A DNA stretch of 64,000 bases from an uncultured virus (IMG/VR IMGVR_UViG_3300020458_000003) (taxonomy: Duplodnaviria > Heunggongvirae > Uroviricota > Caudoviricetes): the IMG/VR virus record IMGVR_UViG_3300020458_000003; one strand, written 5' to 3'. The notes beneath the pieces were generated by a model. It ran no database searches. It was not told where the DNA came from and was given only the letters and a program-made list of their open reading frames with translations. The position numbers and the translations under genes are program-made. Shown in pieces: positions 5,478-61,400 of the stretch (positions are counted from its first letter, which is position 1; each line of letters starts with the position of its first letter).

Positions 5478-5762
5478 ATGCGAAAATCATTACTTGCTGC
5501 TGTACTACTCGGGGTGGTGATCACTATCCCGATTGACGTATCAGCCGTGGGGCGGCGGCCTATCAGGGTGCGAGTGGTGATTGCTCGGCCAGTCCGGAAG
5601 GTCATAGTTCAGGAATCGCAGGCGGTCGTGCAAAGGGTAGTTTCGGTGCGCCCCGCTACGGCAGTTATTACCACAACGTTTCGCCGTGGATTCTTCGGGC
5701 GACTCCGGGCTATCCAGACCGTTACTCTCAAGGAAGCGGATGCAGCTCCGCCAGCTCAGTAA
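5478..5762 (+). CDS. Small secreted basic protein
   Basis: GGAGG RBS; N-terminal signal peptide; Arg/Val-rich. Confidence 0.6.
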   Translation: MRKSLLAAVLLGVVITIPIDVSAVGRRPIRVRVVIARPVRKVIVQESQAVVQRVVSVRPATAVITTTFRRGFFGRLRAIQTVTLKEADAAPPAQ

Positions 5763-7007
5763 ATGCTGATTCGTCGAGTCTTCTCTCTGCTGGCCCTTCT
5801 TTCCCTATCCATGAATATCGAAGTTCATGGGCAAGGAGGGGTTGGCCAGATACTGTCCGCCTCTGATTTGTCCCGAATTCGAGAACACCTTCCACAGCTG
5901 GATGACGAACGCCTAAACGACGTCCTCCATAGCCCTGAGGTCGTTTGGTACGACGACAGCATCGGAGTCTTGCACCAGGAGAGTCTAGGCCCCGGAACGG
6001 CCGGGTTTGTGAATTCTCAGTTCGTCAACAATGACCTCAACTCAGAGTTTCCCTGGACTCAGTTGAAGCCAGGCGGATTTCACAACTCACCAAACGTAAC
6101 GACCGTCAAAGGCTTCCATCTACCACGAGACAACGACCAGGGAGACCTGATCCCTATTGTCTGGTATAGATCTCCGATTGAAGGATTGATCAACCCGGAG
6201 CTGACCTTGCGAGGGTGGGATATATCAGCGCCAGAGGGTACGGTTTGGATCGAGGTTATCTTTGTCGACTTCGACCAGCAGCACCATGCATGCGAGGTTC
6301 GCTTTAGAATCCGAGAATCGGACCAATATGCCGTTGATCTGTATCGTCCATTCACTACCCCCGAGTCCCTCGCACAGGCTATTGTTGACCGGATGGCAGA
6401 CTGGCAGGATTCAGAGACGTTGGCCACACTCGTCAATCACCTGCTCGACCCGGACACCCCACAACTGAGACAACTAAGACACCGCGCGATGGGAAGCAAT
6501 GTCTTCCGAACGGTCGCCTTTCAGGCATTCGAACAGCAGGCTTATGTAGACGACCTGCCACCCGTAGGAAACAACAAGCTAGTTCGTCACCTGTTAGACG
6601 AAACCGTCTTTATCGACGCGCTAGGATCGACGTGGGGGCCGACCACACAGAGCGAGGCACACGTGATTCCGAAAAATGCAGATATCGCCTTTTTGGGCTC
6701 GGACAGAGTCGCATGCGCTCGGTGTCACGTGGACGCCCTGGCCAGTGCTCGGAGATGGGGGACACAATTTGATCTAGGGAATGGATCGGTGGCTACCCAG
6801 GAATTCGCAGGATGGGTCAGGGGATGGTCTGAGGGAATACTCAGTTTCCACCCACTGATGAATCAGCAGTTCGAAGATCGGTTTATTAGACAGCCGATCT
6901 TCCGGAAACAATGGATCGACGCCGGCATAATTGCCCCGTACGACCCACGAGTACACAGCAAAACACACACAAGGATTTATGGACCCCTAAACACGGGAAG
7001 GAACTAA
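5763..7007 (+). CDS. Secreted protein with one CxxCH (c-type haem-like) motif
   Basis: Signal peptide MLIRRVFSLLALLSLS; ACARCHV near the C-terminus. Confidence 0.6.
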   Translation: MLIRRVFSLLALLSLSMNIEVHGQGGVGQILSASDLSRIREHLPQLDDERLNDVLHSPEVVWYDDSIGVLHQESLGPGTAGFVNSQFVNNDLNSEFPWTQLKPGGFHNSPNVTTVKGFHLPRDNDQGDLIPIVWYRSPIEGLINPELTLRGWDISAPEGTVWIEVIFVDFDQQHHACEVRFRIRESDQYAVDLYRPFTTPESLAQAIVDRMADWQDSETLATLVNHLLDPDTPQLRQLRHRAMGSNVFRTVAFQAFEQQAYVDDLPPVGNNKLVRHLLDETVFIDALGSTWGPTTQSEAHVIPKNADIAFLGSDRVACARCHVDALASARRWGTQFDLGNGSVATQEFAGWVRGWSEGILSFHPLMNQQFEDRFIRQPIFRKQWIDAGIIAPYDPRVHSKTHTRIYGPLNTGRN

Positions 7008-7009
7008 AG

Positions 7010-7945
7010 ATGAAGATGTTCTGTTTTTTGATTGCATTAACGGCAGGCGTTAATGCGGCGCATGGGCAGTGTAATAGCGGAAGATGTAACGTACAAACTC
7101 GCTTCCAACTGCCGAACACGGCATTTCAATCAGCTCTCAATATCCCCAGCCTCAGCACATCCATTGAGAATCAACCGGACCGCCGCACGAAACCGCCGAA
7201 GCTATTGGCGTCTGCCTTCTTCGCGAGTACTGCCGCCGAGCAGAGAGTACGCGAGTCGTCGGTGTCTATTCAGTTGCCAAGTGGGCGACACGCCCTCTCA
7301 GGTCATATTATCGGACTCCGAAGCGACGATATTGCAACTATCTTGACAGCGGCCCACCAGTTACCAGATCAGCCGGTTATCCTCTACGCGACCGGCCAGC
7401 AAGCGCAGGGTACCGTTGTGGCCGTTAGTCGACAGTACGATGTAGCGGTTGTCATGGCGAGGTCTGGAAGGGGAGTGCAGGCACTTCCCATCAAAAAATA
7501 CCCATCGCAATACACTGGCGACCGTGTGGCACACGTTGGATTTGGGAAGGGCAACGAATACCGTGTTTCGGCCGGTGAAATCGTCGGACATGTCTCGATT
7601 GAACATGATGGACTGTCGGAGCCGAAATATTTGGCGTCATCCCGACGAGGTCTTAGTCTTAGGTATGACACGAAAAAAACACAATTAGCCATCACTGGTG
7701 ATATTCGGCCCGGAGATAGTGGGGGTGCAATCGTGAACCAACACGGGGAGCTTCTGGCCGCGGTCTGGGGTAATTCCGACCCCGAAGAATCGAGAGTGTA
7801 CGGCACCGACAACACGACACTGACAACGTTACTGGACCGCGCTAAGCAGGTTGCTGGGTTGACCTGGGATATGGCGGAAGATAGACGCCCCCAGCATACG
7901 GCAGCCAGTGACCCGTCTGCCGAATCGAATCCTCACCCTTTTTAG
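7010..7945 (+). CDS. Secreted trypsin-like (S1) serine protease
   Basis: Signal peptide from ATG 7010; catalytic motifs LTAAH, YDVAV and PGDSGG. Confidence 0.9.
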   Translation: MKMFCFLIALTAGVNAAHGQCNSGRCNVQTRFQLPNTAFQSALNIPSLSTSIENQPDRRTKPPKLLASAFFASTAAEQRVRESSVSIQLPSGRHALSGHIIGLRSDDIATILTAAHQLPDQPVILYATGQQAQGTVVAVSRQYDVAVVMARSGRGVQALPIKKYPSQYTGDRVAHVGFGKGNEYRVSAGEIVGHVSIEHDGLSEPKYLASSRRGLSLRYDTKKTQLAITGDIRPGDSGGAIVNQHGELLAAVWGNSDPEESRVYGTDNTTLTTLLDRAKQVAGLTWDMAEDRRPQHTAASDPSAESNPHPF

Positions 7946-8490
7946 GTGCCCTCGATCTCGACGATATTTCTCCGGAGAGGACGCCGGAGGTCGTGACCGA
8001 GGAAACGAAAGATGACGATCTGGTGGCACTAGGTCATGGACGACAACGCACGGTACTTCTGACGAATCCACAGATAGTGCGTGGCCCTGCTGGTCCTCCA
8101 GGCGCCCGTGGTGTTCAGGGGGAACCCGGGCTACCGGCAGACGAGGAATCTATTCTGCTGGCGCTATTCAAACACATTAAATCGGACCCGTCTTTCAGAG
8201 GATCTGACGGATTGCCCGGAGAACCGGGACCACAGGGGGTTTCCGGACCGGCTGGCCCTATCGGACCAGCAGGAGGGACCGCAGAGATTGAGTCTCTAGT
8301 TGCTCAGCTGGAGGGAATCAAGCAAAGGCTGCGGAATCTGGAGCATTACGACTACGAAATCCACCTAGTAGATGAACACGACCAGCCGACATATAAAAGA
8401 AACGGACAGGCCAACGTCGTGACTACTGGCCTGCATCGTCCGGGATACCTACGACAGCTCCCGCCGTCAAATTCAACAGGTACACAATAG
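7936..8490 (+). CDS. Collagen-repeat and coiled-coil domain, probably the -1 frameshift extension of the protease
   Basis: G-X-Y repeats (GPAGPPGARGVQGEPG, GLPGEPGPQGVSGPAGPIG); frame is open back to CCCTTTT at 7936-7942. Confidence 0.7.
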   Translation, partial: PFLGALDLDDISPERTPEVVTEETKDDDLVALGHGRQRTVLLTNPQIVRGPAGPPGARGVQGEPGLPADEESILLALFKHIKSDPSFRGSDGLPGEPGPQGVSGPAGPIGPAGGTAEIESLVAQLEGIKQRLRNLEHYDYEIHLVDEHDQPTYKRNGQANVVTTGLHRPGYLRQLPPSNSTGTQ

Positions 8491-8610
8491 CCAATGCCTA
8501 GGTCGTGGCCGTGGCCGACACCGGACACAGAGGGACGTACTGGAGAGATACCGGCAACAGGGGGAACCGGTGTATCTGACACATCACCCCCACCCACAGA
8601 GGAGTGTCAT

Positions 8611-8898
8611 ATGCCCATGCTAGAGGAAACGAAATCAATCCTAGAACAGTCTTTCGTGAATACTCATAAGCGGCTCGAACAGACCGCCGAGAGGTTCAAC
8701 GACGGTTCCGGATTCATCGCGCAGGAGAGTAAGCAGCAGTTCTTGCTGCAGAAGCAACTTATGACGGCTACCGCGCAAAATCTCATGGAAAAGGAAGGAC
8801 TCGCCGATACGCTCATGCAGCTGAAGACGGCCGGGACGTTCCCGAATAACCTTCCTAGTGGCGGTGGTGTTGTTCTGGCGCCGACGACTGGCGCCTGA
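8611..8898 (+). CDS. Small helical hypothetical protein
   Basis: GAGGAG RBS before ATG 8611; followed by a terminator. Confidence 0.65.
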   Translation: MPMLEETKSILEQSFVNTHKRLEQTAERFNDGSGFIAQESKQQFLLQKQLMTATAQNLMEKEGLADTLMQLKTAGTFPNNLPSGGGVVLAPTTGA

Positions 8899-8921
8899 GA
8901 TATTGGGGATGCAGTTCGGAG

Positions 8922-8963
8922 GCCGGGGCGATGGGGAAGGACTCCGTCGTCTCGGTTTTTTTT
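8922..8963 (+). terminator. Rho-independent terminator
   Basis: CCGGGGCGATGGGG / CTCCGTCGTCTCGG stem followed by T8. Confidence 0.8.
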
Positions 8964-8967
8964 CTAA

Positions 8968-9219
8968 ATGACACCACTGCAAAAACAAGTCGTTTCGCAG
9001 TTGGCTGTGAATGTTGCCAACGACCTATCCTGGGTACCAGACGAGAAGGACCGCCAGAAAGTATGCGATTGGTTCCATGAGAGAATCGTCTCCCTGGTGC
9101 CGACTCTCGAACCACAATACCGTGAACATCTCCTGCAGCAAAACCACGACACGGTGGCTGGAATTGTGCTGACGATTCAGGACAAGGGCGAATTTTCATT
9201 TCTCGACAACAAGAAGTAA
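8968..9219 (+). CDS. Hypothetical protein
   Basis: Compact 83-aa ORF, colinear with its neighbours. Confidence 0.55.
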   Translation: MTPLQKQVVSQLAVNVANDLSWVPDEKDRQKVCDWFHERIVSLVPTLEPQYREHLLQQNHDTVAGIVLTIQDKGEFSFLDNKK

Positions 9220-9225
9220 AGCCAG

Positions 9226-9738
9226 GTGATCATGTGGAACCCACTGACAGCTTCCCAGACGAATACCCCTGGATCCAATCCAGAATCTCATTCCGATCCG
9301 AACTCCACGCAGGGTTCGAAGGGATCGCTGCCGCGACAAAACGGCTTTTGGAATATCAAGAAAGACTTCGCCGACCTGGCAGTGATCCAGCAGCTCAAGG
9401 GGATGCAGACGGAGCTCAACAACGAAAGACGGGCAGTCTCAATGGGTGATCGACAACTGCGCGAACACTATCCGGATTCCTGGGAAAAACCCGAATATGA
9501 CTCGGACATGCAATATCACAGCCCAACAACAACGAATTACTACCAGCCACCGCCAGAGAAAAAAACAAACCTGTGGCCGTGGCTAGCGCTGATGGGACTA
9601 GGAGCCATGGGATCGTCTGCCTACTGGGATGCGAATCGGGACAAGGACCACCACATTAAACCACAGCCACAAGGAAACACGACGACGAACACCACAGAGG
9701 TGTGGAGGCTGGAAGCAGGAGAAGGACCAAATGAGTAA
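9226..9738 (+). CDS. Single-pass membrane hypothetical protein
   Basis: PPPEKK followed by hydrophobic LWPWLALMGLGAMG. Confidence 0.6.
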   Translation: MIMWNPLTASQTNTPGSNPESHSDPNSTQGSKGSLPRQNGFWNIKKDFADLAVIQQLKGMQTELNNERRAVSMGDRQLREHYPDSWEKPEYDSDMQYHSPTTTNYYQPPPEKKTNLWPWLALMGLGAMGSSAYWDANRDKDHHIKPQPQGNTTTNTTEVWRLEAGEGPNE

Positions 9739-10884: not shown

Positions 10885-11017
10885 ATTGTGACCTGGCTTT
10901 TGAAGGGAGCGGTCGCATCCAGTCCCCCCCTCCAGGGGTGCCCTGATTTTGACAGAATCCTCGTGTGGCAGCCAGATCGAAGTCAGCACCGCTCTGGGAT
11001 CCCATTTTCAGGCATCC

Positions 11018-11052
11018 TCGCCTGTCGCCTCGCCTGTCGCCTCGCCTGTCGC
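11018..11052. repeat. 12-bp tandem repeat (CTCGCCTGTCGC), about 3 copies
   Basis: Read directly. Confidence 0.9.
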
Positions 11053-11227
11053 GTGACTCAAGGCTACCTCACGAGACGACTGCCAGCCGTCCGCGAAAGA
11101 TTCATACTTCCAGTGAGTCGAAGGGAAAGGGTTATCCTCCAGCTTCCTCCCTTGCTTTGCCCACTCCCACCCCAGGCCAAACGCCGAAAGCTCGCCACGT
11201 GATCGTACCATGCCAATCCTCGTATGA

Positions 11228-11461
11228 TTTCCCGTTGGCTTCCCGAAGCTTCCCGGAGCTTCCCGGGGCTTCCCGGGGCTTCCCGTTGGCTTCCCGGGGC
11301 TTCCCGGGGCTTCCCGTGGCTTCCCGTGGCTTCCCGTTGGCTTCCCGTTGGCTTCCCGTTGGCTTCCCGGGGCTTCCCGGGGCTTCCCGGGGCTTCCCGT
11401 GGCTTCCCGTTGGCTTCCCGGGGCTTCCCGTTGGCTTCCCGGGGCTTCCCGGGGCTTCCCG
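11228..11461. repeat. Tandem array of GCTTCCCG cores (22 copies, 10-11 bp period)
   Basis: Cores separated by GG, TG, TTG, AA or GA. Confidence 0.97.
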
Positions 11462-11478
11462 GTGAATTATGGCAGATC

Positions 11479-11524
11479 AGCAGCTAGGCAAGAAAGTTCT
11501 TAAGTTCGCCGCGCGAACTTTCTG
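11479..11524. repeat. 46-bp direct repeat, copy 1 (copy 2 at 12694-12739, partial copy at 12979-13001)
   Basis: AGCAGCTAGGCAAGAAAGTTCTT(A/G)AGTTCGCCGCGC(G/T)AACTTTCTG, 2 mismatches between the full copies. Confidence 0.95.
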
Positions 11525-40099: not shown

Positions 40100-40143
40100 C
40101 AAAAAAACCCCCTCGGAAAACACCAGAGGAGGTCGTATACCGA
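40100..40143 (-). terminator. Rho-independent terminator
   Basis: ACCTCCTCTGG / CCGAGGGGGT stem plus T-tract. Confidence 0.7.
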
Positions 40144-40203: not shown

Positions 40204-40554
40204 TTAGCGAGTAACCTCTGGAGGTTCAACAGTGGGTGCCGTCTCAGCTGCAACAGGTTCCAATTCGGGTTCGGGTTCGGGTTCCAATTCGGGTTCGGGT
40301 TCGGGTTCGGGTTCGGGTTCGGGTTCCAATTCGGGTTCGGGTTCGGGTTCGGGTTCGGGTTCGGGTTCGGGTTCGGGTTCGGGTTCGGGTTCGGGTTCGG
40401 GTTCGACTGGCTCCCCAAGACTTCCAAATCGGCTATCCACCTTCTGGCCAATTACGGCCAACAAGGCGAGCTTGCTCCCAGCGTCCAGTTCTGCCGTATC
40501 GAGTTTTTCAATCCAGAGGTCAGACGCCGCTAGTATTTGTCCCTTGATTCCCAT
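40204..40554 (-). CDS. Small protein with (EP)n tract
   Basis: GAGGA RBS; encoded over a hexamer repeat. Confidence 0.65.
40255..40405. repeat. (GGGTTC)n hexamer microsatellite with two CAATTC interruptions
   Basis: Read directly. Confidence 0.97.
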
Positions 40555-41113: not shown

Positions 41114-42751
41114 TTAGGAGATAAGTGAGTCTGCTTGAGTCTCTCCGCCAGCACTGTTGCTCGGAATGAGGAGGTCCTTGCTGCGGAGTCCGTAAATCCT
41201 ATTTGCCCATTCATGCAGGGCGCCCGCCCTGTCATTGGTGACAGGAAGCGTTATTAAGTCGTCAACTTCCCATCGCAGCGGCCCCGTAAATAGCGATGCG
41301 GACAGACCACCTATATACAACTCATCCATCGGGACGAGACAGACCTCATCCATGAAAATACTAGTCCCAGCAGAAACTGCTGTTGAGATACGAATCCTTA
41401 AATACACCGTATCAGGAATCGTAAGTGGTGTCCGAAATACACCCGCCTGATGTGTGAATGCCGAATTACTAATAGCTGTGGCATCAATCGTGTAGGAATT
41501 CGCCGTCGACTGTTTGTCGTTAATGACCGTTCCCGTGACGCTTTCAACGAGGTCGACAGTAAACACGCCGGCAGCAGGAACCACATCAGCCTTCATCCAA
41601 ATGCTGCAAGCATATTGCGATGCCTTATCCAGGACAACCGGAACCAATACAGTGGTTGTTTCTGAACCGTTAGAATCGAACTCCAAAGATCGCGCCCCTT
41701 GCATGACGTGCGCGCTGCCTGCCGTAGTGGTCGCGTGTGCTATAGACCCGCTGGTTGTGTTGTCAATGCTCGTCAACTGGCCAGGACTCGGAACGCCTGT
41801 GAACGTAATAGTGTGCGTAAAGTCCGGCGATGTTCCTGTCGTCACATTGGTAATGCTCCCTAGCCCTGTCAATGCCCTCAATGCTGACTGCACGTCTGAC
41901 TGGCTGGCGTTGTAGGCGAGAGGCGCAGTGCTCTGGGTATTGGAATCACCATCGACCCATTGAAGAATGTAATGACCCGCGCTTGGTGTGGACGATATAA
42001 TTACCGTCTGAACTTCGACCGGTGTAATCTTTAGAGTCGTGCCCAGAGTGGCTGTTTGCGCTAACCACCCCTGTGGGACATGCGGCGAAGTGGTGTCATC
42101 ATCAGCCGTTTCAATACCGCCGTTAGTAACAAGGTTGCTTCCGCTAGACGACATGTGACTGGTAAGTGAGCTGGACACTCCAGACCCCTTCGGCCAGTCG
42201 TAATTCAGAATCGGCGTTGCCACCTCTCCGTTGACATCGAGAGATGCTAGGCCACTGATCGGACTGTCAGTGATCTTACATTCAATGTGTTCCGCTAGGA
42301 TATGCTCATTTACCAGACCGTCTCCTCGCTTTGTGGAAATTAAAACTTTGCCTGTTCCGACGTTACTTCCTCCGTAACTGGGGGTACACCCTGGACTCGA
42401 TGCGTCCAACGACTGTGATGCGGCATTCATCTGTTTTATCAGTTCCGCCAGGGCATCATCGATCCCGTCAGATGGCTGTTGATTGTCCGCTTTGATTGTC
42501 TCAATCAAGTCGATAATCATGGCAGACACAACACAGCTCGACTGCGCAGGTGCGAATGCCGCCTGAAACGATCGGAGCCCGGGCAAAACCCTAGCCCTCC
42601 CTTTCTCTTTGGCGATAGCATTCGACCCCCCCATTGACTGGATTGCATCCTCTATCTCAGCTTCTATCGTTGCCGCGGCTGTTTGCATCGTGTTGCCGGC
42701 GAAAGAAAACTTCCCAAACACTGTCCAGAACGTTGTGAAATTTATGGCCAT
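41114..42751 (-). CDS. Tail structural protein with carbohydrate-binding-like domain
   Basis: NLVTNGGIE; EVQTV...STAPLAYNASQSDVQSALRAL insert; IFMDEVCL. Confidence 0.65.
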   Translation of the reverse strand: MAINFTTFWTVFGKFSFAGNTMQTAAATIEAEIEDAIQSMGGSNAIAKEKGRARVLPGLRSFQAAFAPAQSSCVVSAMIIDLIETIKADNQQPSDGIDDALAELIKQMNAASQSLDASSPGCTPSYGGSNVGTGKVLISTKRGDGLVNEHILAEHIECKITDSPISGLASLDVNGEVATPILNYDWPKGSGVSSSLTSHMSSSGSNLVTNGGIETADDDTTSPHVPQGWLAQTATLGTTLKITPVEVQTVIISSTPSAGHYILQWVDGDSNTQSTAPLAYNASQSDVQSALRALTGLGSITNVTTGTSPDFTHTITFTGVPSPGQLTSIDNTTSGSIAHATTTAGSAHVMQGARSLEFDSNGSETTTVLVPVVLDKASQYACSIWMKADVVPAAGVFTVDLVESVTGTVINDKQSTANSYTIDATAISNSAFTHQAGVFRTPLTIPDTVYLRIRISTAVSAGTSIFMDEVCLVPMDELYIGGLSASLFTGPLRWEVDDLITLPVTNDRAGALHEWANRIYGLRSKDLLIPSNSAGGETQADSLIS

Positions 42752-44541
42752 TATGTCTCCGCCTTCACACCTTCGGTCAAAATTCCAGAAGCAGATTTGA
42801 ACGCGGTAGCTGGAATAACAAAAATGTCACTTTCGCCATCCTTCGACTTTCGGTAGGGCAGCAGCGCAGCGGGGATCTCCCCCTTGGAGTAGTCCGGCCG
42901 CCGCGACAGACCAAATCGCAACTCATACCTGACGTGATACAACGTCTTGCGGCCATCCGCGCTTAGCAATGGCGCTGAAGGGTAGATTTTTTCGCTTAAC
43001 AAGCTGTGGTTAATCTTGCTTGTGGTGTCTACAAAATCTTTCGGCTCTGGAAGTGTAGGCCAAGCTTCCAGCCTCTCGGCGTCAATGCGAATGACTCGTT
43101 CTGTGACCCCTTGATGCAGAGAAATAAAGGCCACTGAAGGGTCTGTTGGAACCTTCCGTAGCCCAAGAGGCATCTGAATCACACCTAAATCAGTAGTAAT
43201 GTCCGACGACATCTTATAGACGTTATAAGCAGAAGCCATATGTTCATCCGAGTAACCCGAGTCAGATGCCTGCAGCTCCTCTCCCTGGTCGACGACCTCC
43301 ACCGAGGCGTTAGATCGTTGCGTTTCTTTCCCTTGCGAGGATGGGCTATCACCAGGAAACCCAAAAACATGACACGGATCGTTCAGAAACGCTAGAAAAA
43401 GACCTTTGAGCGTTGCGGTCTGAGAACCAATGACAGCTTTGGTGTGATCATACCCGGCCAACCGCACTGCCCCGTCATCTAAAGGCAAGCCAAACGTATT
43501 GTTGAGGTCAGCGACATTCCACAGCTTTATATCGGCGTCATCCCCAATAAGTTTGACCGTCGCATTTGCTTCCACCTCATTCTTTTCAAAAATCTCCTTA
43601 TAAGAAGCGTACTGCAGCCAGCTCTGCTTCAATCGCCGCAAGTCTTCATAGTGCAATTTCGCGATCATGATCTTTTGCGCAAGCTGCATCAATGCGCGCT
43701 TCGGGACGTTGTTAGGCGCCTTGAGTCGGACGTGAATACTGGACGTAAGTACGGCACCGCCAGGTTCTGGACTCGTGATGCTGTGATAGCCACTCCATTC
43801 CGTCGCTGGAGCAGGCGCGACCGCCCATTGCTCCTGGTCTGTAATCGAAAACTCCAGCTCAAGACCATCGGTAGATTGATTCAGTGTAATCTTCCGCCGC
43901 TTGAAGGCCCTTTGAAGAGCAGGAAATCGGTAATTCCTCCGTAATTCAAGCAGGACATTTTTGCTTAAGTCAGCGACCCGTATACGACCGTGATAAACCC
44001 TAGTTGTGGTCCAGTCCGCACAGTCGATATCCTCAGCAATCCAAAAACGGAAACTAATAACACCTCCGGGCTGTTGGCCTGGTTCAGAGCAATATGGGAG
44101 ACACATGGTGATCCCGAACTGAATCCGCATGCTCTGGGCGCTGACAATATCTAAAACCTTGACAGTTGTTACAGGACCGTGGTTTACATCAAGTTGATTC
44201 TGTGGAAGTCGTCCGGCCCCCTGAGAGTGAATTCCTGGTCGAGTGTGTCCTGCAGCGACGTCAAACAGCACACCGTCTCCGACGGTCATTTCGAAGTGGC
44301 GTCGCGGCTGCATTAGACGTTCAATAACTTGGTTGTAGCCCGAGGCAAGCGTCCCTGCTGACCCAAGGTTCAGCCCGAGACCATCCACGTTACTCATGTG
44401 GAACAAAGTTGTCACGGACACGTGAACCTTGACGTAGAGCGGATCGACTCCAGTCGGCTCTTTTACAAGCTGCTGGTCAATAGACTCTGTCAGGACATCC
44501 CGGAGTGTGATGCCATTGTAAGAGATGTTGGTTTCAGGCAT
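42751..44541 (-). CDS. Tail protein following the tape measure
   Basis: 596 aa; start overlaps the upstream stop. Confidence 0.55.
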   Translation of the reverse strand: MPETNISYNGITLRDVLTESIDQQLVKEPTGVDPLYVKVHVSVTTLFHMSNVDGLGLNLGSAGTLASGYNQVIERLMQPRRHFEMTVGDGVLFDVAAGHTRPGIHSQGAGRLPQNQLDVNHGPVTTVKVLDIVSAQSMRIQFGITMCLPYCSEPGQQPGGVISFRFWIAEDIDCADWTTTRVYHGRIRVADLSKNVLLELRRNYRFPALQRAFKRRKITLNQSTDGLELEFSITDQEQWAVAPAPATEWSGYHSITSPEPGGAVLTSSIHVRLKAPNNVPKRALMQLAQKIMIAKLHYEDLRRLKQSWLQYASYKEIFEKNEVEANATVKLIGDDADIKLWNVADLNNTFGLPLDDGAVRLAGYDHTKAVIGSQTATLKGLFLAFLNDPCHVFGFPGDSPSSQGKETQRSNASVEVVDQGEELQASDSGYSDEHMASAYNVYKMSSDITTDLGVIQMPLGLRKVPTDPSVAFISLHQGVTERVIRIDAERLEAWPTLPEPKDFVDTTSKINHSLLSEKIYPSAPLLSADGRKTLYHVRYELRFGLSRRPDYSKGEIPAALLPYRKSKDGESDIFVIPATAFKSASGILTEGVKAET

Positions 44542-46223
44542 TAAAGGTATGTTGGTCGCTTTGTTGTCGTGTCCGATTTTCCGGTTTTTGGGTCGATTCC
44601 GGCACGTAAAAAGTGATCAAACACCGCATCACCCGGCGTCGGACCGCCGCTGCCGGTAACCCAGTCGGATAGCAGTTCCAATAGGGAAACAAGTGCGCCG
44701 GCCGAGAGACTTGAATACTTTACCTGATCCTTTAAACCCAAAAGAGTCGTTTTGAAACCCCACGCCATGTTACCCAAAATTTCAACAACAGTTGTCGCAA
44801 TAACATTAAGTGCGATTGTGACTGTATCACGAATCGGCTGCAATTCATCCTTTAAATCACTGAGTGATTTCACCAATGCGGCCTGTGATGCACCGATGCG
44901 GCCTCCACTTCCGATATTTCGCATAATATCGGCGCGTTCGGATTGCAGATATGCCCCAGCGATGACTGCGTTGTAGCGTACGAGATGTTGCTTTGAATCC
45001 TTTAAGCTCTCCGTCCAATCGAGTACCGCCCCTGGAAGCTCGATTGCAGTATCGAAAAGGCTCTTGAAGACGGTCGTGAGCTTGGTAACAGGTCCAGTGA
45101 ACGGATTTATGACTGCGCCGGCGGTCTTCATCCCCCGGGTTACAAAATGTCCCATCTTGTCGGAGGCTGATGTTGCATCTCGTCCACCGAAAAACCCAGT
45201 GAGGTTGCTCCTCCTGCCGGGCATCTGTGGGCGCCCTGGATTCAGGTATCCAGCAACCCCTCCAGCGGTCCCGCCAGCGGCCATGCCTTGAGCAAAATCT
45301 ACAGCAAAGTTCGACCATCCCTGGCTGGATGGACCAGAGCCACCTGCCCCGCCAGGACGGCCACCACCACCTGCTCCACCACCGATGAGATTTCTAACGG
45401 TCTCCGCCCAACCGCCAGGACGTCCGCCGCCGCCTGCCCCGCCAGGACGTCCGCCGCCGCCTGCCCCGCCAGGACGGCCACCGCCACCTGCCCCGCCAGG
45501 ACGGCCACCACCACCGGCTCCACCACCGAAGAGATTTCCAACGGTCTCCGCCCAACCGCCAAGACGGCCACCACCACCTGACGAGCCTCCACCGCCCCGT
45601 GGCGATGGTCCTCCGACAACTGGAGGAACTGCTCCGCCTGGCGTTGGTTGGCTCCCGAGCCAGTCCCCGACGATGTCGTGGACCGTTCTTCCTCCCGGTG
45701 CCTTTCCAGAACTAATCGGAGGCTGTGGCAGTGGCTTTCCCGACAGTGTCGGAACATTCCAGCTACGGCCGCCCTTACCTGCCATGTCGAATACTGGCGA
45801 CTTTGTTACGGACTTAGCAGCCTTCGCGCCGCCCCTCCCGTATTTAAACGCTTTTGTCGCGTCACCAGCGTACGGAACGAAGCCCGAAACCGCCGAAATA
45901 GCAGCGTTTGTTAGGTGCTTATTCCTCTCTTCTGGACTGTCAGATTTCGCGGCGCGAAAAAGAGAAATGATGCCGTTAATACTGTCAACAACTGGAGTGG
46001 GGTCAAGAACCCCAGCGATATCGAGACCGAACTGCAGCGTGTCGATGCCAGGAGATTTGTCGCCATCAGCCGGACCCTGCGAGAGCATGTCCGACATCTT
46101 CGAGGCAGCGTCCTCACCTCCAGATGGCTTACCGCCTTTGCTGGACATCAAGGCGCTTGCAATATTAGGCCCATATTGGGCAGCTAGTTTTTTCAGCGAC
46201 TGAGCGAGAGGGGGATTGGCCAT
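44541..46223 (-). CDS. Tape-measure-position protein with a pre-toxin TG-like N-terminal domain and Gly-rich repeats
   Basis: Directly after the frameshifted chaperone pair; helical C-terminal half; LQFGLDIAGVLDPTPVVDSING...VPYAGDATK. Confidence 0.65.
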   Translation of the reverse strand: MANPPLAQSLKKLAAQYGPNIASALMSSKGGKPSGGEDAASKMSDMLSQGPADGDKSPGIDTLQFGLDIAGVLDPTPVVDSINGIISLFRAAKSDSPEERNKHLTNAAISAVSGFVPYAGDATKAFKYGRGGAKAAKSVTKSPVFDMAGKGGRSWNVPTLSGKPLPQPPISSGKAPGGRTVHDIVGDWLGSQPTPGGAVPPVVGGPSPRGGGGSSGGGGRLGGWAETVGNLFGGGAGGGGRPGGAGGGGRPGGAGGGGRPGGAGGGGRPGGWAETVRNLIGGGAGGGGRPGGAGGSGPSSQGWSNFAVDFAQGMAAGGTAGGVAGYLNPGRPQMPGRRSNLTGFFGGRDATSASDKMGHFVTRGMKTAGAVINPFTGPVTKLTTVFKSLFDTAIELPGAVLDWTESLKDSKQHLVRYNAVIAGAYLQSERADIMRNIGSGGRIGASQAALVKSLSDLKDELQPIRDTVTIALNVIATTVVEILGNMAWGFKTTLLGLKDQVKYSSLSAGALVSLLELLSDWVTGSGGPTPGDAVFDHFLRAGIDPKTGKSDTTTKRPTYL

Positions 46224-52474: not shown

Positions 52475-55400
52475 TTAACCGCTAACTTGATAGTGCGTCC
52501 TGCAGTAGCGCGTGACTGCCTCTCTATTGCGCGAATAACTCTCTGCTTGCGGCTTGTCCACAGAGACCATCTTTACGTTGACGCCAGTTTTGCGGAACGA
52601 TTCAGGCAGGTTAAAACTTCCTTGCGGCAGCTCTTCTGAAGACCCTCCGAGCCCACTGACCCACTCATCGAATTGTTCTCGATTCCCTCCTCCTCCTCCT
52701 GACATGATGGCAACGAGACGACCGCCGGGCTTCAGTTGCTTATATGCATGCTGAACGTGCGATATATCAGCGCCTTTCTCAAACGGCGGGTTCATCACAA
52801 TCCTGTCGTACTGTCCCTGGTGCGCTAAGAAGTCGCCATATTCGACATCATGACCCTTGGCAGACAATACCGGACTCAGCTCACGATTGAACTCCATGCC
52901 CTTTAGGTTGGCGTCTGGATGTTCGTCGCGAACAGCATCCAGGATATCGCCTTTGCCTGACGACGGCTCAAGGACATCATGCCCGGAGCGGATATCAGCC
53001 TCTGATAGCATCTGGTCGATCAAGCCTGGTGGCGTCGGGAAGAACCCTGGTATCTTGCGACCAATCAGGTCTCTTTCGGCTTTCGCTATCGGGTCCTCGG
53101 CTCCTTTTTTACCTCGGATCGGTATGTACTCTCGCAGCGCAGCGCGGAGTTCGTGCTCGTTCGTGATGCCCGCTGCATGAAGCCTCTGCATCGGCTCGGC
53201 AGCGCTTTTTAGGCTTTCGATGGTCCATTTGTGCTCCCTCGGATTCACCTTTCGGAGTTTAGCCGTGACGCTTTTTAACGCTTCCCATTGGTACTGACTC
53301 TTTAATCGTACGATACCGCGGTCACCCGCCTTCTCTGACAACTTTTTGAGGTAGTCACGTTCGTATTTAATCCCCTGCCTGCCTCGGAGCGCTTCGGACA
53401 TGCGATTGATATCACTGGACTGCAGTACGGGGTAGGGATAAGACGCATGATCCGCGTGTCCTGCCGTGATAGGCTCCTGCTGGGCATTTTCGTACGTCTG
53501 GTTGGGTAATTTTCTTCTGTCGCCTCCGTATTCTGTTTCGACGAGGTGGTCTAGCTTGTTCCACCTGGATCGATTCAAGACCGACTCTAACGCTTCGATG
53601 TGCGTACCGGCCGAAATACCGTCGAGGTACTTTGCCTGTCCGCTGTCGATAGCACTGGCTATGTTTCGCATGGTCGCAGCTCGCGCAATGTTCGACCGAG
53701 CCCTACCCTGAATTCCTGCCGCCATTTCAGCCTGTCGGGACGTGTTTGTCCTCCGGTCGGCAGAGAGGTCGGCATTGGCCGACTCGTGAAGCCTGTCCGC
53801 CATCGCATTCATCCGTTCGGCCGCGCTGGCTGACTTTAGCCGCTTATCCTCTTCCAGTCTTGCTGAAACGTCTGCATTCTCACCTTCAGTGAGTCCGAGA
53901 AACTTCTCACGGCTTTCTTCATTCTCGAAATGGAATCCGCCAGGAGTCCCCTTGTACGGCTTGTAATACCAGCCGCCAAGACGCTTAGCTTTGCTGCTCA
54001 GGTCACGAAATGTCTCACTGTCAAAGCGATCCTGGGGACTCGCCGTATAGACGTCGTAGCCTCTCTTGCTGTGGTAGTTGGTTGACAACTCAAACTCCGT
54101 GTTGCCTACCTCCACAGCCTGAACAGTCGCCTTCTCGTCCTCCTTTGCCTTTCGTGACTCACGAGACTTGTCGGCCGCCAACTGGTCGTACTGCTGTCGC
54201 TGGTCCGGTCTAAGATTCAGATATCCACCCTTTGCCTTCTCGGCCGTTTTGTACTCGTCAACCGTGGTGGGATTATTCAGCGAGCGCTCTTGGTGGGCTT
54301 TGTGTTCTTCGATTTGCTGCTTTCTATCCGCAATGCGTTCCGCGCGATCTGCCGCATGCTGTTTGATGTGTTCATCTGTCGTGTTTGCAACTGCCTCTGA
54401 CAGGGCTTCTTCGTGAGTTTCCCCCCTCGTGGGATCATAGCGAACTGATTCCCCGGTCACATGCAACTGGTCACGGATGCGGCCATAGATAGCATTCACC
54501 AGAGCTTCCTTGTTTCCACCCTGATACCTCGCGCGCGCCATCGGCCCTAAGCCGCTCAAAAGCTCCTTTTTGGTCTTGGTGCCAAGCTCGGCCTTTATTC
54601 CAGCACCGTTGTCCATGACCTTTGCATGGGCCGCTTTGAGGTCCTCAGCCGATATCGTCCCAGAATTAAGACGATCCATCACGTCATCGATATTTTGTAA
54701 GCTAATGCCGGATCCAGCTATTTTCTCCTGTTCTTGAGCTTTGAATACTTTCGGGTCGATCCCCAATAGCTTGTTCTCTGTCGTCCCGTGAGACTTCAGC
54801 GCCGAAGCGTACCGGCCGGTGAATCGCTTGTAATTTTTATTCCCAAAATGTTCGTTTTCACCAGCCACATCTCTTCGTAAATTATTGATGGCATGTACGA
54901 CGGCTTGATTCTTGTTGTCAGCCGTCCCGTGAATGTATCCCGACCCGTCGCGTTTCAAAATTCTCCAGTAGTGGCCGTGCTTCTCGACTCGACCCAACGC
55001 ATCCTCAATCTCATCTAAGGTCGGCATTCCCTGGGAGTTGATTTCGATCTTTGACGAGTCCCGTTCGGTCTCTTCGATCCCTTGGTGTGCTCTCCACTCC
55101 TCGACTGACTTGCGGATTTTGTCGCGACTAATGCCACCTTGAGAACTCATAAAGATGGATTCGGTGATGGTGCCCAGCGCTGCCGTCTTGGCTTCCCGGA
55201 CAGACTTCTTACCTGCCTCGGTTAGCATGGAGTCGAGATAGCTGGCATTGGCCGAGAGTTCTGGGGGTGCCGCCTCAGCTGGTGAGGATTCCGCAGTCGC
55301 CTCTGCCTTTTTAGAGACGATTTGCCACTTGCCAGGAGAATGCTCGCGGATAGCGTATTCCTGCCCTTCAATTCCCTTCATGCCGTCGGCCATTTTGGCT

Positions 55401-58400
55401 GCAACTGATTCACTGGCCAGGCCAGCATGAGCGCGATCCCAATCACCGTCTACCCATTCATCATTTGAAATCCGTGGGGTGTCATCGCCTTGACGAGCGA
55501 TTGCATCGTCGATCGATGATTCCTGGTCACCTTGAGAAACGGCAATCGGTTCATCTCTCTGCCGGTCCATAGCTCGCTGCCGGTCCATAGCTCGCTGCCG
55601 CGCGGGGGATGGTTGGGGCTTTGCCGCTTCTAGAAGTCGAGGCCGTTCTTCAGCTACCTCGGCGCGGAGTCCCATTTCCTTGATTGGATCCAGTCCGTGG
55701 CGCCGCATGGTGTCGCTGATATTCTCATTGTTGTCGATGGACTCTTGAGCTAGGTCGGTTGCTGCAGGTTGCTCTTTTCCTCTTGATGCTTGGGCACTAG
55801 CATTCTTTAATTCATCTTCTAGTAGACGTTTGCCTGAGGAAAGGTACTCAATATCTCGATTGAGAGCTCCCGCGCTGCCGCCGATATTTCTACCAGCCTT
55901 GACTCTCGCTTGGATTTTCTCGTCCTGTTTTTCGATGTCTTTCTCTATCGCTTCAGGACTTCGGTTAAAGCCTTCATCAATTAACGATCGAACGGCGAGA
56001 GCGATGCCATCAAAACCATCAGGAGCCAAGGAGCCGATTGTATGTGCTAAATCTGACGAACCCTGTCCTCGTTCGAGCTTTTTGAGGTTCGTCCTATTAA
56101 GCTTAAGGCCCTTCGATTCCAGGTAATCCTTGACGGCCTGCTCTGCTTCCGGCATGAATTCACTGGCATGGCGTTTTTCCTGCGGTTCTTCGGCCACTTC
56201 TTCAGTGGCAGCCTCTTCGACAGGATCCTCATCACCCCATTCCTTGGCGCCGTCCCCTGGCTCTGGGTTTATGTTCCCGCCCTGGCTCTCGACGATTGAC
56301 GGCCCGTCAAAACCTTCCATTTCGGCCGATTTGTTAAACTTCTCTAACTGTTCTCGCGCACTATCTACGCTGTCGCGGATCTTCTCCCAGGTTTCCCACT
56401 CGTAGCGGCCGTCCCCACCGAACTTCTTGTCTGCATCGCGGCCTTTTTGGAGTGACACCTCTGCGTCCTTGAGACCGTCTACGGCCTGGGTGACCATCTC
56501 CTGGACGAAGGCAGGCATGTCCTGAAATGTCTTTGTGGCTCCCTCTTCTGGTTCCGGTTCGGACGGTTCCTCGCCTTCGTTCTTGTCTTCACCAACCGGG
56601 TCACCGGGCTGCCTGGACTGTGTCGGGTAGTCCTCGATCGAGTTCTTTCCCATGTCATCGTTGGTGGCCGGTTCAAGATCCGACATGTTCACATAGTGCC
56701 GATTGCCCTTGATATCGATCAAACCGACACGGTCGGATCCCATTCCGCTCCCGCCACGCATCACACCGACAAGACCTGTCGGATCCTTAACCAGACTCCC
56801 ATACGACACTTCTCCCATCCGTGCGGATTGAGGAGACTCTGGTTCCTCCGCCGATTCTGGTTCATCCTCTTTCGGAGTGTAGTCAGGAGACCAAAACGGT
56901 TTCTTTGGTGCAAACTTAGACTCGTCGATATTTCCCGCATGCTGCTCGGTTAAAAAGTGATCAACAAGACGGTTGTAAGCTGGTTCGCCGTATCCATGGA
57001 TGTCAGAAGGGTCGCGATCTTTGCGGACAATGCCGCGACTTTTTCGGGCGTTGATGCCCCTTAAAACTGCCGACCGTTCAGAATCACTTAGACCCTCAAA
57101 CCACCTCGGGGCGTCTACTATCGCTTTGACCCGTTCGTCTCCCTTGACTTGGCGCGGGTTCCATTCTTCTTCCGGTTCCTCCGCCGCCTTCTCCTTGAAA
57201 CTACTCAGCAGCTTCAACGCCTTTTTCGGCTCCCATTTAACCATGGAATCAATTGCATCAAGAGCTTCCTTGGGGTCCCCACCGTGCTTTGCTATCGTGG
57301 CATCGGCTACTGCTTGACCCACCTCATCGAATAGCTCTTTAGCCTGGGCCTTGGCTTCCCTGTTTTCACTGAAGGCGACCTTTCGCTTATCTTTGGCGAT
57401 TTTCGCTTGCTCTCGCTTGTCGCGATCGATCTGGGAATCGAGAGACCCACTCCCGCGTTTATCGACCGGGACATTAGAAATGGCCGTATCCCCGCCAGTG
57501 TCGGTCACTGGATCGCCTTCCCGTTCTCGCTTGGCTTCCAATCGCACTTTTAATTCGTTATGGAGGTGGTCAAGCAGCTTCTCACCGTGGCCACGTCCTG
57601 CAGCATTGAAGTAGCGGTTATACGAAGAAGCGATATTGCGGTCGTAGTTCTTTCCTTGCAGTGAGTACGGCTTGGCTTCGTCTAGGACTTCCGCGTGCCG
57701 GTCAATCACACCACCAGTCGGCTCTTCGTTTGGCTCGGCGACTTCCTCTGCAGGTTTCGATTCTTCAGGCACAGGTTCTGGCGAACCCTCTTCCTCTGGT
57801 GCCGGTTCCTCTTGGTCCCGCCGCTCCCACCGAGAGTTGGCGTTAAGGACATAGGTCACGCCGCCCTCTGTCTTGGTTTCACCTTGTTGGTGTTGCGGCG
57901 TTTCAAACAATGGACCAGGAGAACCGAAGAGGTCCATCTGGCCTGGACTGGACTTTCTGCGCGCATACGATTCCGGGTAGTTGGCTTTCATGTACCGCTG
58001 GACGGCATCCTCGGCATACGTCATTCGGTCGTCAGACGGGTCGAATGTTCCTTGATTGTCTGATGACTTGATTTGGTTTGGTTCGAATGCGACCCATACG
58101 CGATGTTCATGACCGCCTCCCATGATGTTTCCGCCTGTGTGCGTTAGTCCGTCGTGTCCCATCTGGCGGAATAAGTCATGCCTTTGGTCCTTGCTTAAAG
58201 GTCTCATCCCACGAGCAACCTCTACTCCAACGTAATTGCTGATCTCGTCCATCAAGCCCCAAACGGAATGCTCCTGACCGCCCTGCATATTGGGGTGCTT
58301 CTCCACCATTCGTCGGTCATTTGCATACCTGCGAAGCACTCTAGCTGCCTTTCCACGCTCACCATGAAAATCACTGGATTCGATGGTATATGCCAGAAAC

Positions 58401-61400
58401 TCTGCTTGATCGGATGTAGCGATTTGGTCTAAGTCGAGAGGATTGCGGATGTTCAAGTAAACATTCTTGACTTCCGACTTAGGCAGCAATCCCTTGAGGT
58501 AGTCATGTAGCGGCTGTAGATCAGCCTCGTCTCGCATCGGTAATTCATCGTGAATAGTGGTCTGATTCAGCGTCCACTTACCCGGAGTTGCCGGTGAATC
58601 ATGTGCTATCCGCACGTTTTTATAAGGCTGCTGACCTGTCTTGTAGATGATATTGACTTCCGCACCACCAGTTCGCCCGCTGCCAAATGCCGGTTTCTCT
58701 TGCAATTTGTAGTCGTCCGGCAATAGTGAGATAATCTTGCTTTCAATAGCCGCCCAGTCTTTGGATTCAGGGTGATAATCGACTGTTGGAAGATTTCCGG
58801 CGTATTCACCCGCGATACTTTCATCTTCTGTGAAGTAAAAACCTGGGCCATACAGCAGAGAATTTGCGTCGCCTATTTTGGACTTATCGAATCGATCCCA
58901 GCCGCCAGAAGGCGTCCCATGGTAAGCGACAATAGGCTTTCCTTCCTTGTCAGCCACCTTACTCATATGGTAATTCTCTTGCGGCTCACCCGTCTCCAGA
59001 TCGACCACTTGAGAGGCATTCTCGGAGTCATTCTCCCAATCACCGAACCAAGACTTGAACGCTTTCGCGCGAACGCCGTTCTCTTGCCAATCTTGGGCGG
59101 CCTGCTCTGGGCTGTACTGCTCTTCGTCCGGGGATTTATCGGAATCGGAGGCTTCCCATCTGTCAATCATCTGTTTGGCGAACCACAGCTGACCGACAGC
59201 GTCCTGAGCCTGCCAGCCGCCAGGAGTGTCCTCGAAAATAGTCCATTCCTTAGATAGCGATCCATCCTCTCTTTCCAAGTGGCCTATTTGGTAACCCTTG
59301 TAGATGTACTCGCTTGGGCCAGTCTTTACAGGTTTCGATTCTTCAGGCACAGGTTCTGGCGAACCCTCTTCCTCTGGTGCCGGTTCCTCTTGGTCCCGCC
59401 GCTCCCACCGAGAGTTGGCGTTAAGGACATAGGTCACGCCGCCCTCTGTCTTGGTTTCACCTTGTTGGTGTTGCGGCGTTTCAAACAATGGACCAGGAGA
59501 ACCGAAGAGGTCCATCTGGCCTGGACTGGACTTTCTGCGCGCATACGATTCCGGGTAGTTGGCTTTCATGTACCGCTGGACGGCATCCTCGGCATACGTC
59601 ATTCGGTCGTCAGACGGGTCGAATGTTCCTTGATTGTCTGATGACTTGATTTGGTTTGGTTCGAATGCGACCCATACGCGATGGTGATGGCCGCCACCCA
59701 TACGGTCACCGCCGATATGAGTAATACCGTCGTGACCCATGCCTCGCAGTACTTCGTACATGGCATACTTACCGATCTGCGAAGACACAATGTTATACAG
59801 TGTCTCAACCTTCCCACTCGGGGTATCGATCTCTTGTAACGTCCGCCAAGAGCTCGACAACTTCTTGCGAAGAGTTTTCGTAACACTCTCTTTAAGTACC
59901 GGACTCATGTCCTTGTACCACCTGCCCCCCACACCGCTAGTTTCCATAGACTTAACGATTGCATCCGCATCCGCAGTCTTTAATACATTGATCCAATCCG
60001 AAACATTCTGATCGGAATCCAAGTCCAATGGTTTCCGGATATTCAAATAGACTTCTTTCGTTTCCTCTGTGCGTTGTCTTGTCACTAGCTGAAGAAGGTC
60101 AACACCATATCGTGACAACGCATTGTAATTGGCCGAATTCATGCCTTCCAAGCTGGCAGCATCTATTTGACCTTCATTTACCTTATTAAGGGTCCATGTA
60201 AGATTATCTACTGCCTCTTTAGCCATTTTTGGTGCAAGCTTACCCCACTTTCCATCGCCAGCCCCCTGTGCTTCAAGCTTTTTCTTTTCTATGGCAACTC
60301 CTATGAGATGTTTGAGCTTTTCTGTCGCTTCATCAACGTTATATTTCAACTTTGCTCGATAGCTACCGCCAGGAGACGATTCCTTCTGTTCATACGAACT
60401 AGCCACAGACTCATCTTCAGTGAAATAAAATCCCGGACCAAATAATAGGTGTTCTGGATTCCCCATCTTCGACTTATCGAACGCTTCCCAGCCGCCAACA
60501 GCTGTCCCGTGATACACCCGTACCGGCTTACCATCTTCACCATGCACCTGGCTCATATGGTAGTTTTCGGTCGGCTCCCCAGTCTCCGGACCGACCACTT
60601 GAGAGGCATTCTCGGAGTCATTCTCCCAGTCACCAAACCACGACTTGAAGGACTTCGCGCGGACGCCGTTCGCCTGCCAGTCCTGGGATGCCTGCTCGGG
60701 GCTGTACTGCTCTTCCGGGGCCTCTTTTTCTGATTCTGGAGAGGTGGTCTCGATTTCCGGTGTGGTCGCAGTCGCAGGTTTCGCGGCTTGTGGTTCTTCC
60801 CTGTTGGCCAGTTCCCACCGATGGTTTTGATTGAGCCTGTACGTGGTCCCGTTCTCTGTCTTCGTGTCTCCAACTTGGTGGTCTGGGAAGTCAATCATCA
60901 ACTGCTGCGCGTACTTCAGTAGCTGGTCGCTGTTCTTCGAATACTGTCCAGATCCCATATTGGCCTGGAGCAACTTCATAGCGCCCTTTGCAATCTTGGC
61001 CGCACCCTGCTTGCTCATGCCCAGCTTCTCACCGATCTCGGAAAAACTCATACCCTCTTCGAACTTCATGGACAGAACGGCGCGCTGGCGTTCCGGTAGC
61101 TCCTCCATCAACTCTTGGAGTTGTTCAACTAGCTCGCCTTCGCCCGCGAGTTCTCCGCCAGATCGCATCTTTTCATCGACCGGATTCATCGGAGCATCAG
61201 CCGCTTCTTGTGGGATCCCCGCAAAGTCTTCATCTCCTGGAACGGCTACCACACCACCGCGGCGAAGCTTCCCGGACGCGCGCTGTATACTCTGCAAAAC
61301 CCAGTAGGCAGCGTATTTATGGAAAGCCTTTCCTTTGCTTGGGTCGAATTTGTCAGCTGCATGTAGCAGAGCAATCGAGCCCTCCTGGAGGAGGTCGTCG

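Follow-up and report, generated by a model that had tools for sequence, protein, structure and literature searches.

The frameshifts known from phages cluster in genes for tail chaperones, for capsid decoration and, in a few cases, for replication. Passages of a review (PMC5009743) describe phage proteins that gain C-terminal extensions by −1 frameshifting, such as the gene 10A/10B products of T3 and T7 and the proteins extended by Ig-like domains. Here we describe a locus at positions 7,010 to 8,490 of a 64,000-nucleotide (nt) stretch of DNA, hereafter the window, which comes from an uncultured virus of the Caudoviricetes (IMG/VR record IMGVR_UViG_3300020458_000003). At this locus the open reading frame (ORF) of a putatively exported serine protease, ORF1, is followed in the −1 frame by a collagen-like and coiled-coil ORF, ORF2. 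From sequence comparisons we propose that ORF1 and ORF2 constitute one gene, and that programmed −1 ribosomal frameshifting would give it two forms, a protease of 311 amino acids (aa) and a protease–collagen–coiled-coil protein of 493 aa. We assign this reading a probability of about 0.58.

The locus shares several features with the described systems. As in gene 10 of T3/T7 and in the Ig-like extensions, the heptamer is placed at the very end of the upstream ORF, and a minority product would carry an extra C-terminal module. Another common trait is that one module is joined in frame in certain relatives and by frameshift (putatively so here) in others. Unlike those cases, the protein here is an exported enzyme encoded in an accessory block rather than a capsid or tail protein, and it is known from sequence; the module is a collagen/coiled-coil trimerisation stalk, and the stop codon abuts the heptamer. 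In the lambda G/GT system, too, ribosomes of a double-stranded DNA phage shift by −1 close to where a short ORF ends, which yields a fixed minority of a longer fusion, but the present locus does not lie between tail tube and tape-measure genes and has no homology to those chaperones.

The signals of dnaX and of the IS3 family, as treated in parts of one study (PMC4066793), share with this site an X_XXY_YYZ heptamer of an efficient class and a stable stem-loop after a 7-nt spacer. They differ from it in that the present site has no upstream Shine-Dalgarno (SD)-like enhancer, and a hairpin but no pseudoknot was detected here. The outcome would be a longer product, as in IS3 and unlike dnaX. The order of parts, from the signal peptide through to the C-terminal domain, is that of the single-ORF stalked proteases P0010, P0005, P0023 and L042 found in this work; unlike in these, the frame in the window changes by −1 at a pair of Pro-Phe codons, where another homologue, P0004, also ends. 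The signal is thus of a known kind (canonical heptamer, spacer, hairpin and C-terminal extension), and its setting in a secreted accessory enzyme is unusual. A full-text literature search, with subscription journals outside its coverage, found no paper on a family combining a signal peptide, a DegS-like protease and a collagen stalk, or on such a frameshift. The elements of the locus are the following.

7010..7945, plus strand: ORF1, serine protease of trypsin fold (DegS/HtrA-like), 311 aa, with likely start ATG 7010 and stop TAG 7943-7945
7936-7942, plus strand: slippery heptamer C_CCT_TTT, in phase with ORF1 and read as Pro-Phe in both the 0 and the −1 frame
7943..7949, plus strand: 0-frame stop TAG 7943-7945 and the rest of the 7-nt spacer before the hairpin
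7950..8002, plus strand: hairpin of 17 base pairs (bp), interrupted by an internal loop and capped by an apical loop of 8 nt, minimum free energy −23.2 kcal/mol, 7 nt after the heptamer
7945..7992, plus strand: "spacer" with a coding look in the −1 frame, by codon-usage log-odds
7942..8490, plus strand: −1 extension of 182 codons and a stop, with an acidic linker, a GHGR motif, two collagen runs, a coiled coil and a C-terminal domain
7993..7995, plus strand: GTG, the alternative independent start of ORF2 (165 aa) and the gene finders' call in all records

ORF1, in frame 2 of the plus strand, ends CAC(7934) CCT(7937) TTT(7940) TAG(7943-7945), so that the coordinates given in the original prediction for a slippery heptamer directly before the protease stop are confirmed. 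The string C_CCT_TTT conforms to X_XXY_YYZ, its position in the zero frame letting both tRNAs re-pair in the −1 frame, and the T run at the junction is a T5 (7939-7943). The last upstream stop of the −1 frame is at 7909, and the frame is then open over 7912-8487 up to the TAG at 8488-8490; from 7942 it reads LGALDLDDISPERTPEVVTEETK..., which is the stop-free passage into the collagen/coiled-coil ORF that had been predicted. The earliest ATG, GTG or TTG of this frame is GTG 7993, and none occurs between 7912 and 7993.

We observed in-frame X_XXY_YYZ strings at 82 of 19190 codon positions (0.43%) in the ORF set of the window, which gives a chance of ∼5% of finding one within the 11 codons over which slipping back by one base could connect the two frames. 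Similar in-frame heptamers stand at other ORF ends of the window. The heptamer by itself is therefore within chance; it is homology, codon usage and the downstream structure that raise this site above it. The codons at the junction are uncommon in this genome, with CCT used for 21% of Pro, TTT for 47% of Phe and TTA for 7.6% of Leu. The CCCUUUU heptamer is the one used for frameshifting in West Nile virus, and slippage is favored when a stop codon occupies the A site. The review passages cited above (PMC5009743) include one case where it matters that a stop lies close to the site of shifting. In the parts of the E. coli survey concerned, H_HH.U_UU.Y heptamers rank among the most efficient, and C_CC.U_UU.U is a shifty motif that is under-represented in E. 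coli genes (Sharma et al. 2014, PMC4066793).

The strongest evidence that the two frames belong together comes from homologues. An exhaustive phmmer search with the protease returned 143 proteins at E ≤ 1e-3, and the in-frame fusions that the original prediction suggested looking for were found among them: in 34 of the 143, a run of four or more Gly-X-Y triplets follows the catalytic Ser without a change of ORF. The Gly-X-Y listing amounts to 36 when two extra cluster members are included, and three of the 34 are short, Gly-rich and membrane-segment-like. P0005, P0008, P0010 and P0023, which belong to the nearer subfamily, all have the order signal peptide, QCxxGxC motif, protease, tail ending in [D/S]-Pro-Phe, acidic linker, collagen, coiled coil and C-terminal domain. 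P0010 (559 aa) is colinear with both ORF1 (E 4e-15) and ORF2 (E 2e-20), the ORF2 alignment taking in the non-collagen motif SILLALF..IKSD.SFRG. The fused members keep the Pro-Phe internally, as DPF, SPF, SPF, SPF and TPF in P0005, P0008, P0010, P0023 and L042, respectively.

L042 was one of 10 viral loci matching a degenerate pattern of the catalytic site, and it alone belongs to the subfamily. It lies on the same contig as L046, a syntenic phage contig with one fused ORF, on which the flanking genes are homologous to window positions 5763-7007, ∼8612-8898 and 9226-9738. BLASTP of the 0 frame against the fused ORF of L042 aligned subject residues 12-298 (E 1e-20), reaching the last residues (...SNPHPF versus ...SNDTPF). 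BLASTP of the −1 frame (7936-8487) aligned query residues 1-177 with subject residues 297-518 (E 7e-24), starting from the same Pro-Phe, and the last ∼40 residues of the −1 product are ∼75% identical to the end of the fused ORF. As the two alignments meet at Pro-Phe, the frame change is placed inside 7931-7942. The Pro-Phe codons of L042 are CCG TTC and are non-slippery. From these comparisons, ORF1 and ORF2 correspond to parts of what is a single protease–collagen gene in relatives, with the frame change falling exactly in the heptamer.

Apart from the query itself, the only protein at E ≤ 1e-30 is P0004 (317 aa), which is 43% identical to ORF1 in the phmmer search and 40% identical in the MAFFT alignment. 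It aligns with ORF1 end to end, its tail being 10 residues shorter, and stops right after Pro-Phe. If this stop is homologous to that of ORF1, the split would be old. Programmed frameshifting predicts that an old split should go with a linker that still codes and with an intact ORF2; a young pseudogene does not lead one to expect this.

Several searches gave no further relatives. Single-protein and alignment scans of viral and genome contigs returned no DNA for P0004, and a homologue search with P0004 returned only itself; this search also missed the protease of the window, and is therefore too insensitive to count. A word-indexed search for close relatives of the two window proteins matched only themselves. 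Neither had a match in 50,697 GenBank phage records or in genome contigs, and viral contigs gave nothing usable. The nearest of the virus records searched, G001, does not extend over this region. Scanning viral contigs with P0010 gave 34 loci with collagen-repeat matches only, a scan with the ORF2/L042 alignment re-found only the L042 contig, and a degenerate DNA pattern for the ORF2 motif had no match.

The fused gene of L046 (start ATG 2535) has an in-frame TGA at 2610-2612, at the second Cys of QCxxGxC. This TGA could be a nonsense mutation or a site of Cys-to-selenocysteine change. A hairpin with a GGU loop lies 16 nt 3′ of it (−16 kcal/mol, z −0.37) and is not unusual, and Rfam gave no match to a selenocysteine insertion sequence there at E ≤ 1.

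We next consider whether the T5 run is authentic. The metagenome contig L001 is 100% identical to the window over 7700-8600 (901 nt, including the T5), and there are 0 differences over 7605-8028 and 7846-8004 in contigs of runs X8 and X9, which belong to two other studies. No indel occurs in any of the four runs compared, two of which cover the junction; runs X10 and X14 have no contig across it. Identical copies of the 311-aa protease are recorded on 21 contigs of several sources, and the phage is found unchanged in runs of eight studies dated 2014-2025. A slightly diverged strain in X10, represented by low-depth contigs, shows seven differences in ORF1, three synonymous and four not, which are uninformative at that depth. 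The T5 is genuine and not an assembly slip, which answers the question of its support raised in the original prediction.

The 48 nt between the TAG and GTG 7993 were examined for coding character. The codon-usage log-odds of 7945-7992 is +4.9 in the frame of ORF2, whereas the other two frames give −4.3 and −1.1. Of true in-frame 16-codon segments, 89.5% score lower; among gene segments read out of frame 0.16% score as high, and among 376 48-mers taken from ORF-free gaps of the window none does. When the 17 residues of the spacer were compared in register with the segments after Pro-Phe of five fused homologues, the similarity had p 0.044 against shuffles and p 0.013 against random peptides. 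The segment thus looks like coding sequence reachable only from ORF1. Plain initiation at GTG 7993 without a fusion product, the outcome that the original prediction set against itself, is weakened by this coding-like stretch and by the lack of a signal peptide in the ORF2 product.

Downstream of the heptamer, the 60-mer 7948-8007 folds at −24.7 kcal/mol, which places it in the lowest 1.3% of 5813 window 60-mers and, when the comparison is limited to the 1492 of matching GC content, in the lowest 1.9%. An equally stable fold was reached by 8 of 200 dinucleotide shuffles. The equivalent region of the fused relative gave −15.0 and −16.6 against a locus mean of −15.7. A downstream structure within 5–9 nt is thus present here, with a 7-nt spacer and at moderate significance, and its stimulatory role is putative. 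The 3′ arm of the hairpin contains GGAGG 7986-7990 and GTG 7993, with G7993 and G7995 paired, and AGGA 7978-7981 sits in its apical loop. Rfam had no match over 6500-9500 at E ≤ 1, and no promoter-like or terminator-like site was found between ORF1 and ORF2.

The proteins themselves were analyzed through the following additional features.

7010..7069 (approximate), plus strand: signal-peptide-like segment, then the conserved QCxxGxC motif, the translation being judged by eye
8083..8136, plus strand: collagen-like run 1, six uninterrupted Gly-X-Y triplets, ORF2 residues 31-48
8200..8280, plus strand: collagen-like run 2, nine uninterrupted Gly-X-Y triplets, ORF2 residues 70-96
8278..8487, plus strand: heptad (coiled-coil-like) segment and conserved C-terminal domain (∼45 residues)

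ORF1 matches Pfam Trypsin_2 (PF13365) at E 7.4e-16 and 59.6 bits (cut-off 27.6). In an alignment of 95 sequences, His116 and Ser237 are invariant and Asp144 is conserved in at least 90%. The AlphaFold2 model has a mean predicted local distance difference test (pLDDT) score of 82.7; in Foldseek it is closest to the protease domains of Rv3671c and DegS (E ∼1e-12). The Pfam match above cut-off and the His-Asp-Ser triad place ORF1 in the trypsin fold (MEROPS S1C by fold); it is not a canonical HtrA, because it has no PDZ domain. The signal-like segment followed by QCxxGxC is common to the homologues P0004, P0008 and P0010. The predicted secreted trypsin protease is hence borne out by the Trypsin_2 match, the triad, the DegS-like fold and, by inspection, the signal-peptide-like N-terminus. 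Residues 290-311 of the tail are of low confidence in the model (pLDDT ∼50), and the C-terminal Pro-Phe may dock in the active site, as a self-cleavage product would. Longer homopolymers inside the gene, A7 at 7673, A6 at 7493 and T6 at 7024, are intact.

ORF2 scores 26.9 bits with Pfam Collagen (PF01391), against a cut-off of 27.2, and its PHROG matches are to the collagen repeats of tail fibres only. We modelled the −1-frame product in three copies and obtained a score of 0.71, the best of three controls being 0.00; the trimer runs had a contact agreement of at least 71% and a partner pLDDT of at least 68, a pass that may reflect likeness, as collagen and coiled-coil trimers resemble solved structures. 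The mark is reached by 20 of 30 proteins solved as one-chain pairs, but among 23 proteins whose solved structure is a single chain it is reached by 1. Contacts of the predicted homotrimer run along the collagen parts, the heptad segment and the C-terminal domain, and the models suggest that the −1-frame tail most likely forms a trimer. Run X10 also contains a 170-nt contig that is ∼80% identical to the coiled-coil part of ORF2 (window 8270-8387) and is preceded by a non-matching collagen-like stretch, which indicates a further seawater relative of the stalk module; this contig is too short to reach the junction.

On the proposal of programmed frameshifting, the following course of events could be envisaged. 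Most ribosomes would decode Pro(CCU) and Phe(UUU), reach the UAG and release the 311-aa pre-protease. The UAG, slow to decode, would enter the A site while the hairpin resists unwinding at the mRNA entrance, and some ribosomes would slip one base back on C_CCU_UUU, the Pro and Phe tRNAs re-pairing with CCC and UUU. The shifted ribosomes would read UUA and then 182 codons in the −1 frame, giving the 493-aa protein. This long form would have the same protease followed by the acidic linker, the two collagen-like runs, the coiled coil and the small C-terminal domain, and, like the fused homologues, would have three protease heads on one stalk, with the free protease present beside it. As only the fusion carries a signal peptide, frameshifting would export the stalk.

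Of the frameshift fusion that had been predicted, the core is supported: the two ORFs form one gene in relatives, the junction lies in the heptamer, the heptamer is of a class efficient in E. coli and a hairpin stands at the canonical distance. We infer from the sequence that ribosomes actually shift here, and the same holds for the frequency of shifting, the roles of the two forms and the fixed ratio of short and long forms.

The most serious competitor is a one-base deletion, T6 to T5 or C4 to C3, fixed in a fused ancestor, after which only the protease would be made and the stalk would be a young remnant, for which chance slippage on this run would provide, at most, a very low level of rescue not under selection; passages of the review (PMC5009743) describe low-level frameshifting on indels that is "compensatory". 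We consider this unlikely, if still a possibility to be taken seriously. Such a deletion in T6 or C4 would leave exactly C_CCT_TTT_TAG, so that the heptamer alone cannot separate frameshifting from mutation, and it would have occurred in a C3T5 run, an indel-prone kind of place, with fused single ORFs being the common state among the relatives. All sampled copies are identical, which is compatible with a recent event, the diverged X10 strain lacking coverage of the junction; the coding-like 7945-7992 and the intact ORF2 are equally expected of a young remnant; and the in-frame TGA of the fused relative suggests that members of the family may get broken. Several observations run the other way. 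P0004, 43% identical and hence long diverged, stops after the same Pro-Phe, which would be a coincidence under a recent deletion, and the longer runs A7, A6 and T6 of the same gene are intact. An in-frame ancestor needs the rare string CAC CCT TTT TTA, expected at ∼0.4% from the codon usage of the window. The hairpin, which is suitably spaced from the heptamer and has no counterpart in the fused relative, would be fortuitous, and a dead remnant of 550 nt is unexpected in a phage that stays unchanged across the eight studies. Judged as a pseudogene, the locus shows fused relatives, no further decay (ORF2 and the triad are intact) and a nearest homologue that shares the stop position. If the site is a fixed deletion, it is an ordinary young split gene.

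A stable arrangement of two genes, in which the ancestral gene was split at Pro-Phe and ORF2 is translated from GTG 7993, appears improbable, more so than the deletion. The ribosomes terminating on ORF1 might, in a coupled version, open the foot of the hairpin that masks the ORF2 start. The gene finders choose this GTG in all records, SD-like GGAGG and AGGA precede it, the hairpin pairs the SD and the start in a layout classic for coupling, the ORFs are not separated by a promoter-like or terminator-like site, and the end of P0004 at Pro-Phe fits an old split. GGAGG, however, ends only 2 nt 5′ of the GTG. AGGA 7978-7981 lies 11 nt before it, and in other genes of the window an AGGA or GGAG begins at −9 to −16 from the start; the AGGA, beginning at −15, falls within this range. 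The 48 nt before the GTG, strongly coding in the frame of ORF2 and linker-like in register, are unexpected for an old non-coding spacer, and a GTG-started product would have no signal peptide, although all examined fused homologues place the stalk behind one. Judging from the structure, the upper 6-bp GC stem with the SD would also be beyond the reach of a ribosome stopped at 7943-7945. A sequencing or assembly error in the T run of a gene that is really in frame has very little in its favor: homopolymers are error-prone on some platforms, but the T5 is identical in L001, X8 and X9, and the exact 311-aa product occurs on 21 contigs.

Programmed frameshifting would explain together the position of the junction, the rare codons, the hairpin and its absence in L042, the coding spacer, an ORF2 without signal peptide and the stop of P0004. 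In addition to the ambiguity of the heptamer, the identity of the sampled copies, the TGA of the fused relative and the AGGA at −15, a number of points weigh against it. P0004 is known as a protein from one contig of one source, and the sole relative compared at the DNA level, L042, is fused. No SD-like stimulator was found 5′ of the heptamer and, by eye, no pseudoknot after it. Compared with shuffles of the local sequence, the hairpin stands out only moderately (z −1.72 for 60 nt and z −1.2 for 100 nt) and, masking GGAGG and GTG of ORF2, also fits translational coupling. The efficiency class of the heptamer is taken from E. coli and may not suit the host of this phage and its tRNA set.

Three other origins of the two-frame arrangement were set aside. 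A 5-nt tandem duplication (GAATC GAATC, 7922-7931) is not the source of the frame change, as the later 0-frame residues (Ser-Asn ... Pro-Phe) align with the fused relative. Readthrough of the stop codon would not join the ORFs, the 0 frame meeting a TGA 16 codons later, and a T5 is short for transcriptional slippage.

The window is that of a phage, with genes for a single-stranded DNA-binding protein (SSB), a nuclease, an excisionase-like helix-turn-helix protein, a DnaB-like helicase, RecE/RecT and a major head protein. The neighbors of the protease–collagen unit encode secreted or unassigned proteins, the SSB and the nuclease. The unit lies within a conserved block (5478-7007 and 8612-9738), which has two signal-peptide proteins (94 and 414 aa) upstream, and a small protein and a membrane-segment protein downstream. 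The 414-aa protein and both downstream proteins have homologues in the same order in L046, and the proteins of 5478-7007 and 8612-9738 had no Pfam or PHROG match. The locus does not have the properties of a tail assembly chaperone (G/GT) gene: ORF1 is a protease, the PHROG matches of ORF2 are collagen, and no tail tube or tape-measure genes are neighbors.

The original prediction had presented the site as a second one beside the usual tail-chaperone frameshift, and this part was not confirmed. The sole G_GGT_TTT/T7 candidate looked at, ∼40107-40116 on the minus strand, was rejected, as it resembles a terminator, with a hairpin and a T run in an intergenic spacer; there, G5T7 follows a GC-rich inverted repeat downstream of 40204-40554, a gene consisting largely of Pro-Glu dipeptide repeats. 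Elsewhere on the minus strand, a C_CCA_AAA heptamer occurs in frame at 44586-44592, 14 codons before the end of the ORF 44541-46223; the −1 frame after it enters the next gene (42751-44541, with an ATGA overlap), and it is probably a chance by-product of this overlap arrangement. Two further observations concern distant parts of the window. A tandemly repeated stretch at 10965-11500 (plus strand) has open frames in several phases, with GFPGLPGASR- and WLPVASR-like units, and 52475-63979 (minus strand) is a single ORF of 3834 aa running off towards the window end.

A wider proposal is that a marine phage lineage uses a conserved −1 frameshift at Pro-Phe, with the stop abutting the heptamer, which would set the ratio of free to trimeric, collagen-stalked DegS-like protease; from the sequences, we regard the odds on this as about even. 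If it is true, frameshifting would be the sole route that gives the stalk a signal peptide, and sister lineages would reach the same architecture by in-frame fusion. Programmed recoding, for which structural, replication and transposase genes are the usual setting, would then also act on an accessory enzyme that a phage secretes. It would thereby extend to secreted phage enzymes, with an exported protease optionally hung on a trimeric collagen stalk. L042 and this phage would then be a natural pair, one fused and one frameshifted, for asking what use a fixed ratio of free to stalked protease may have.

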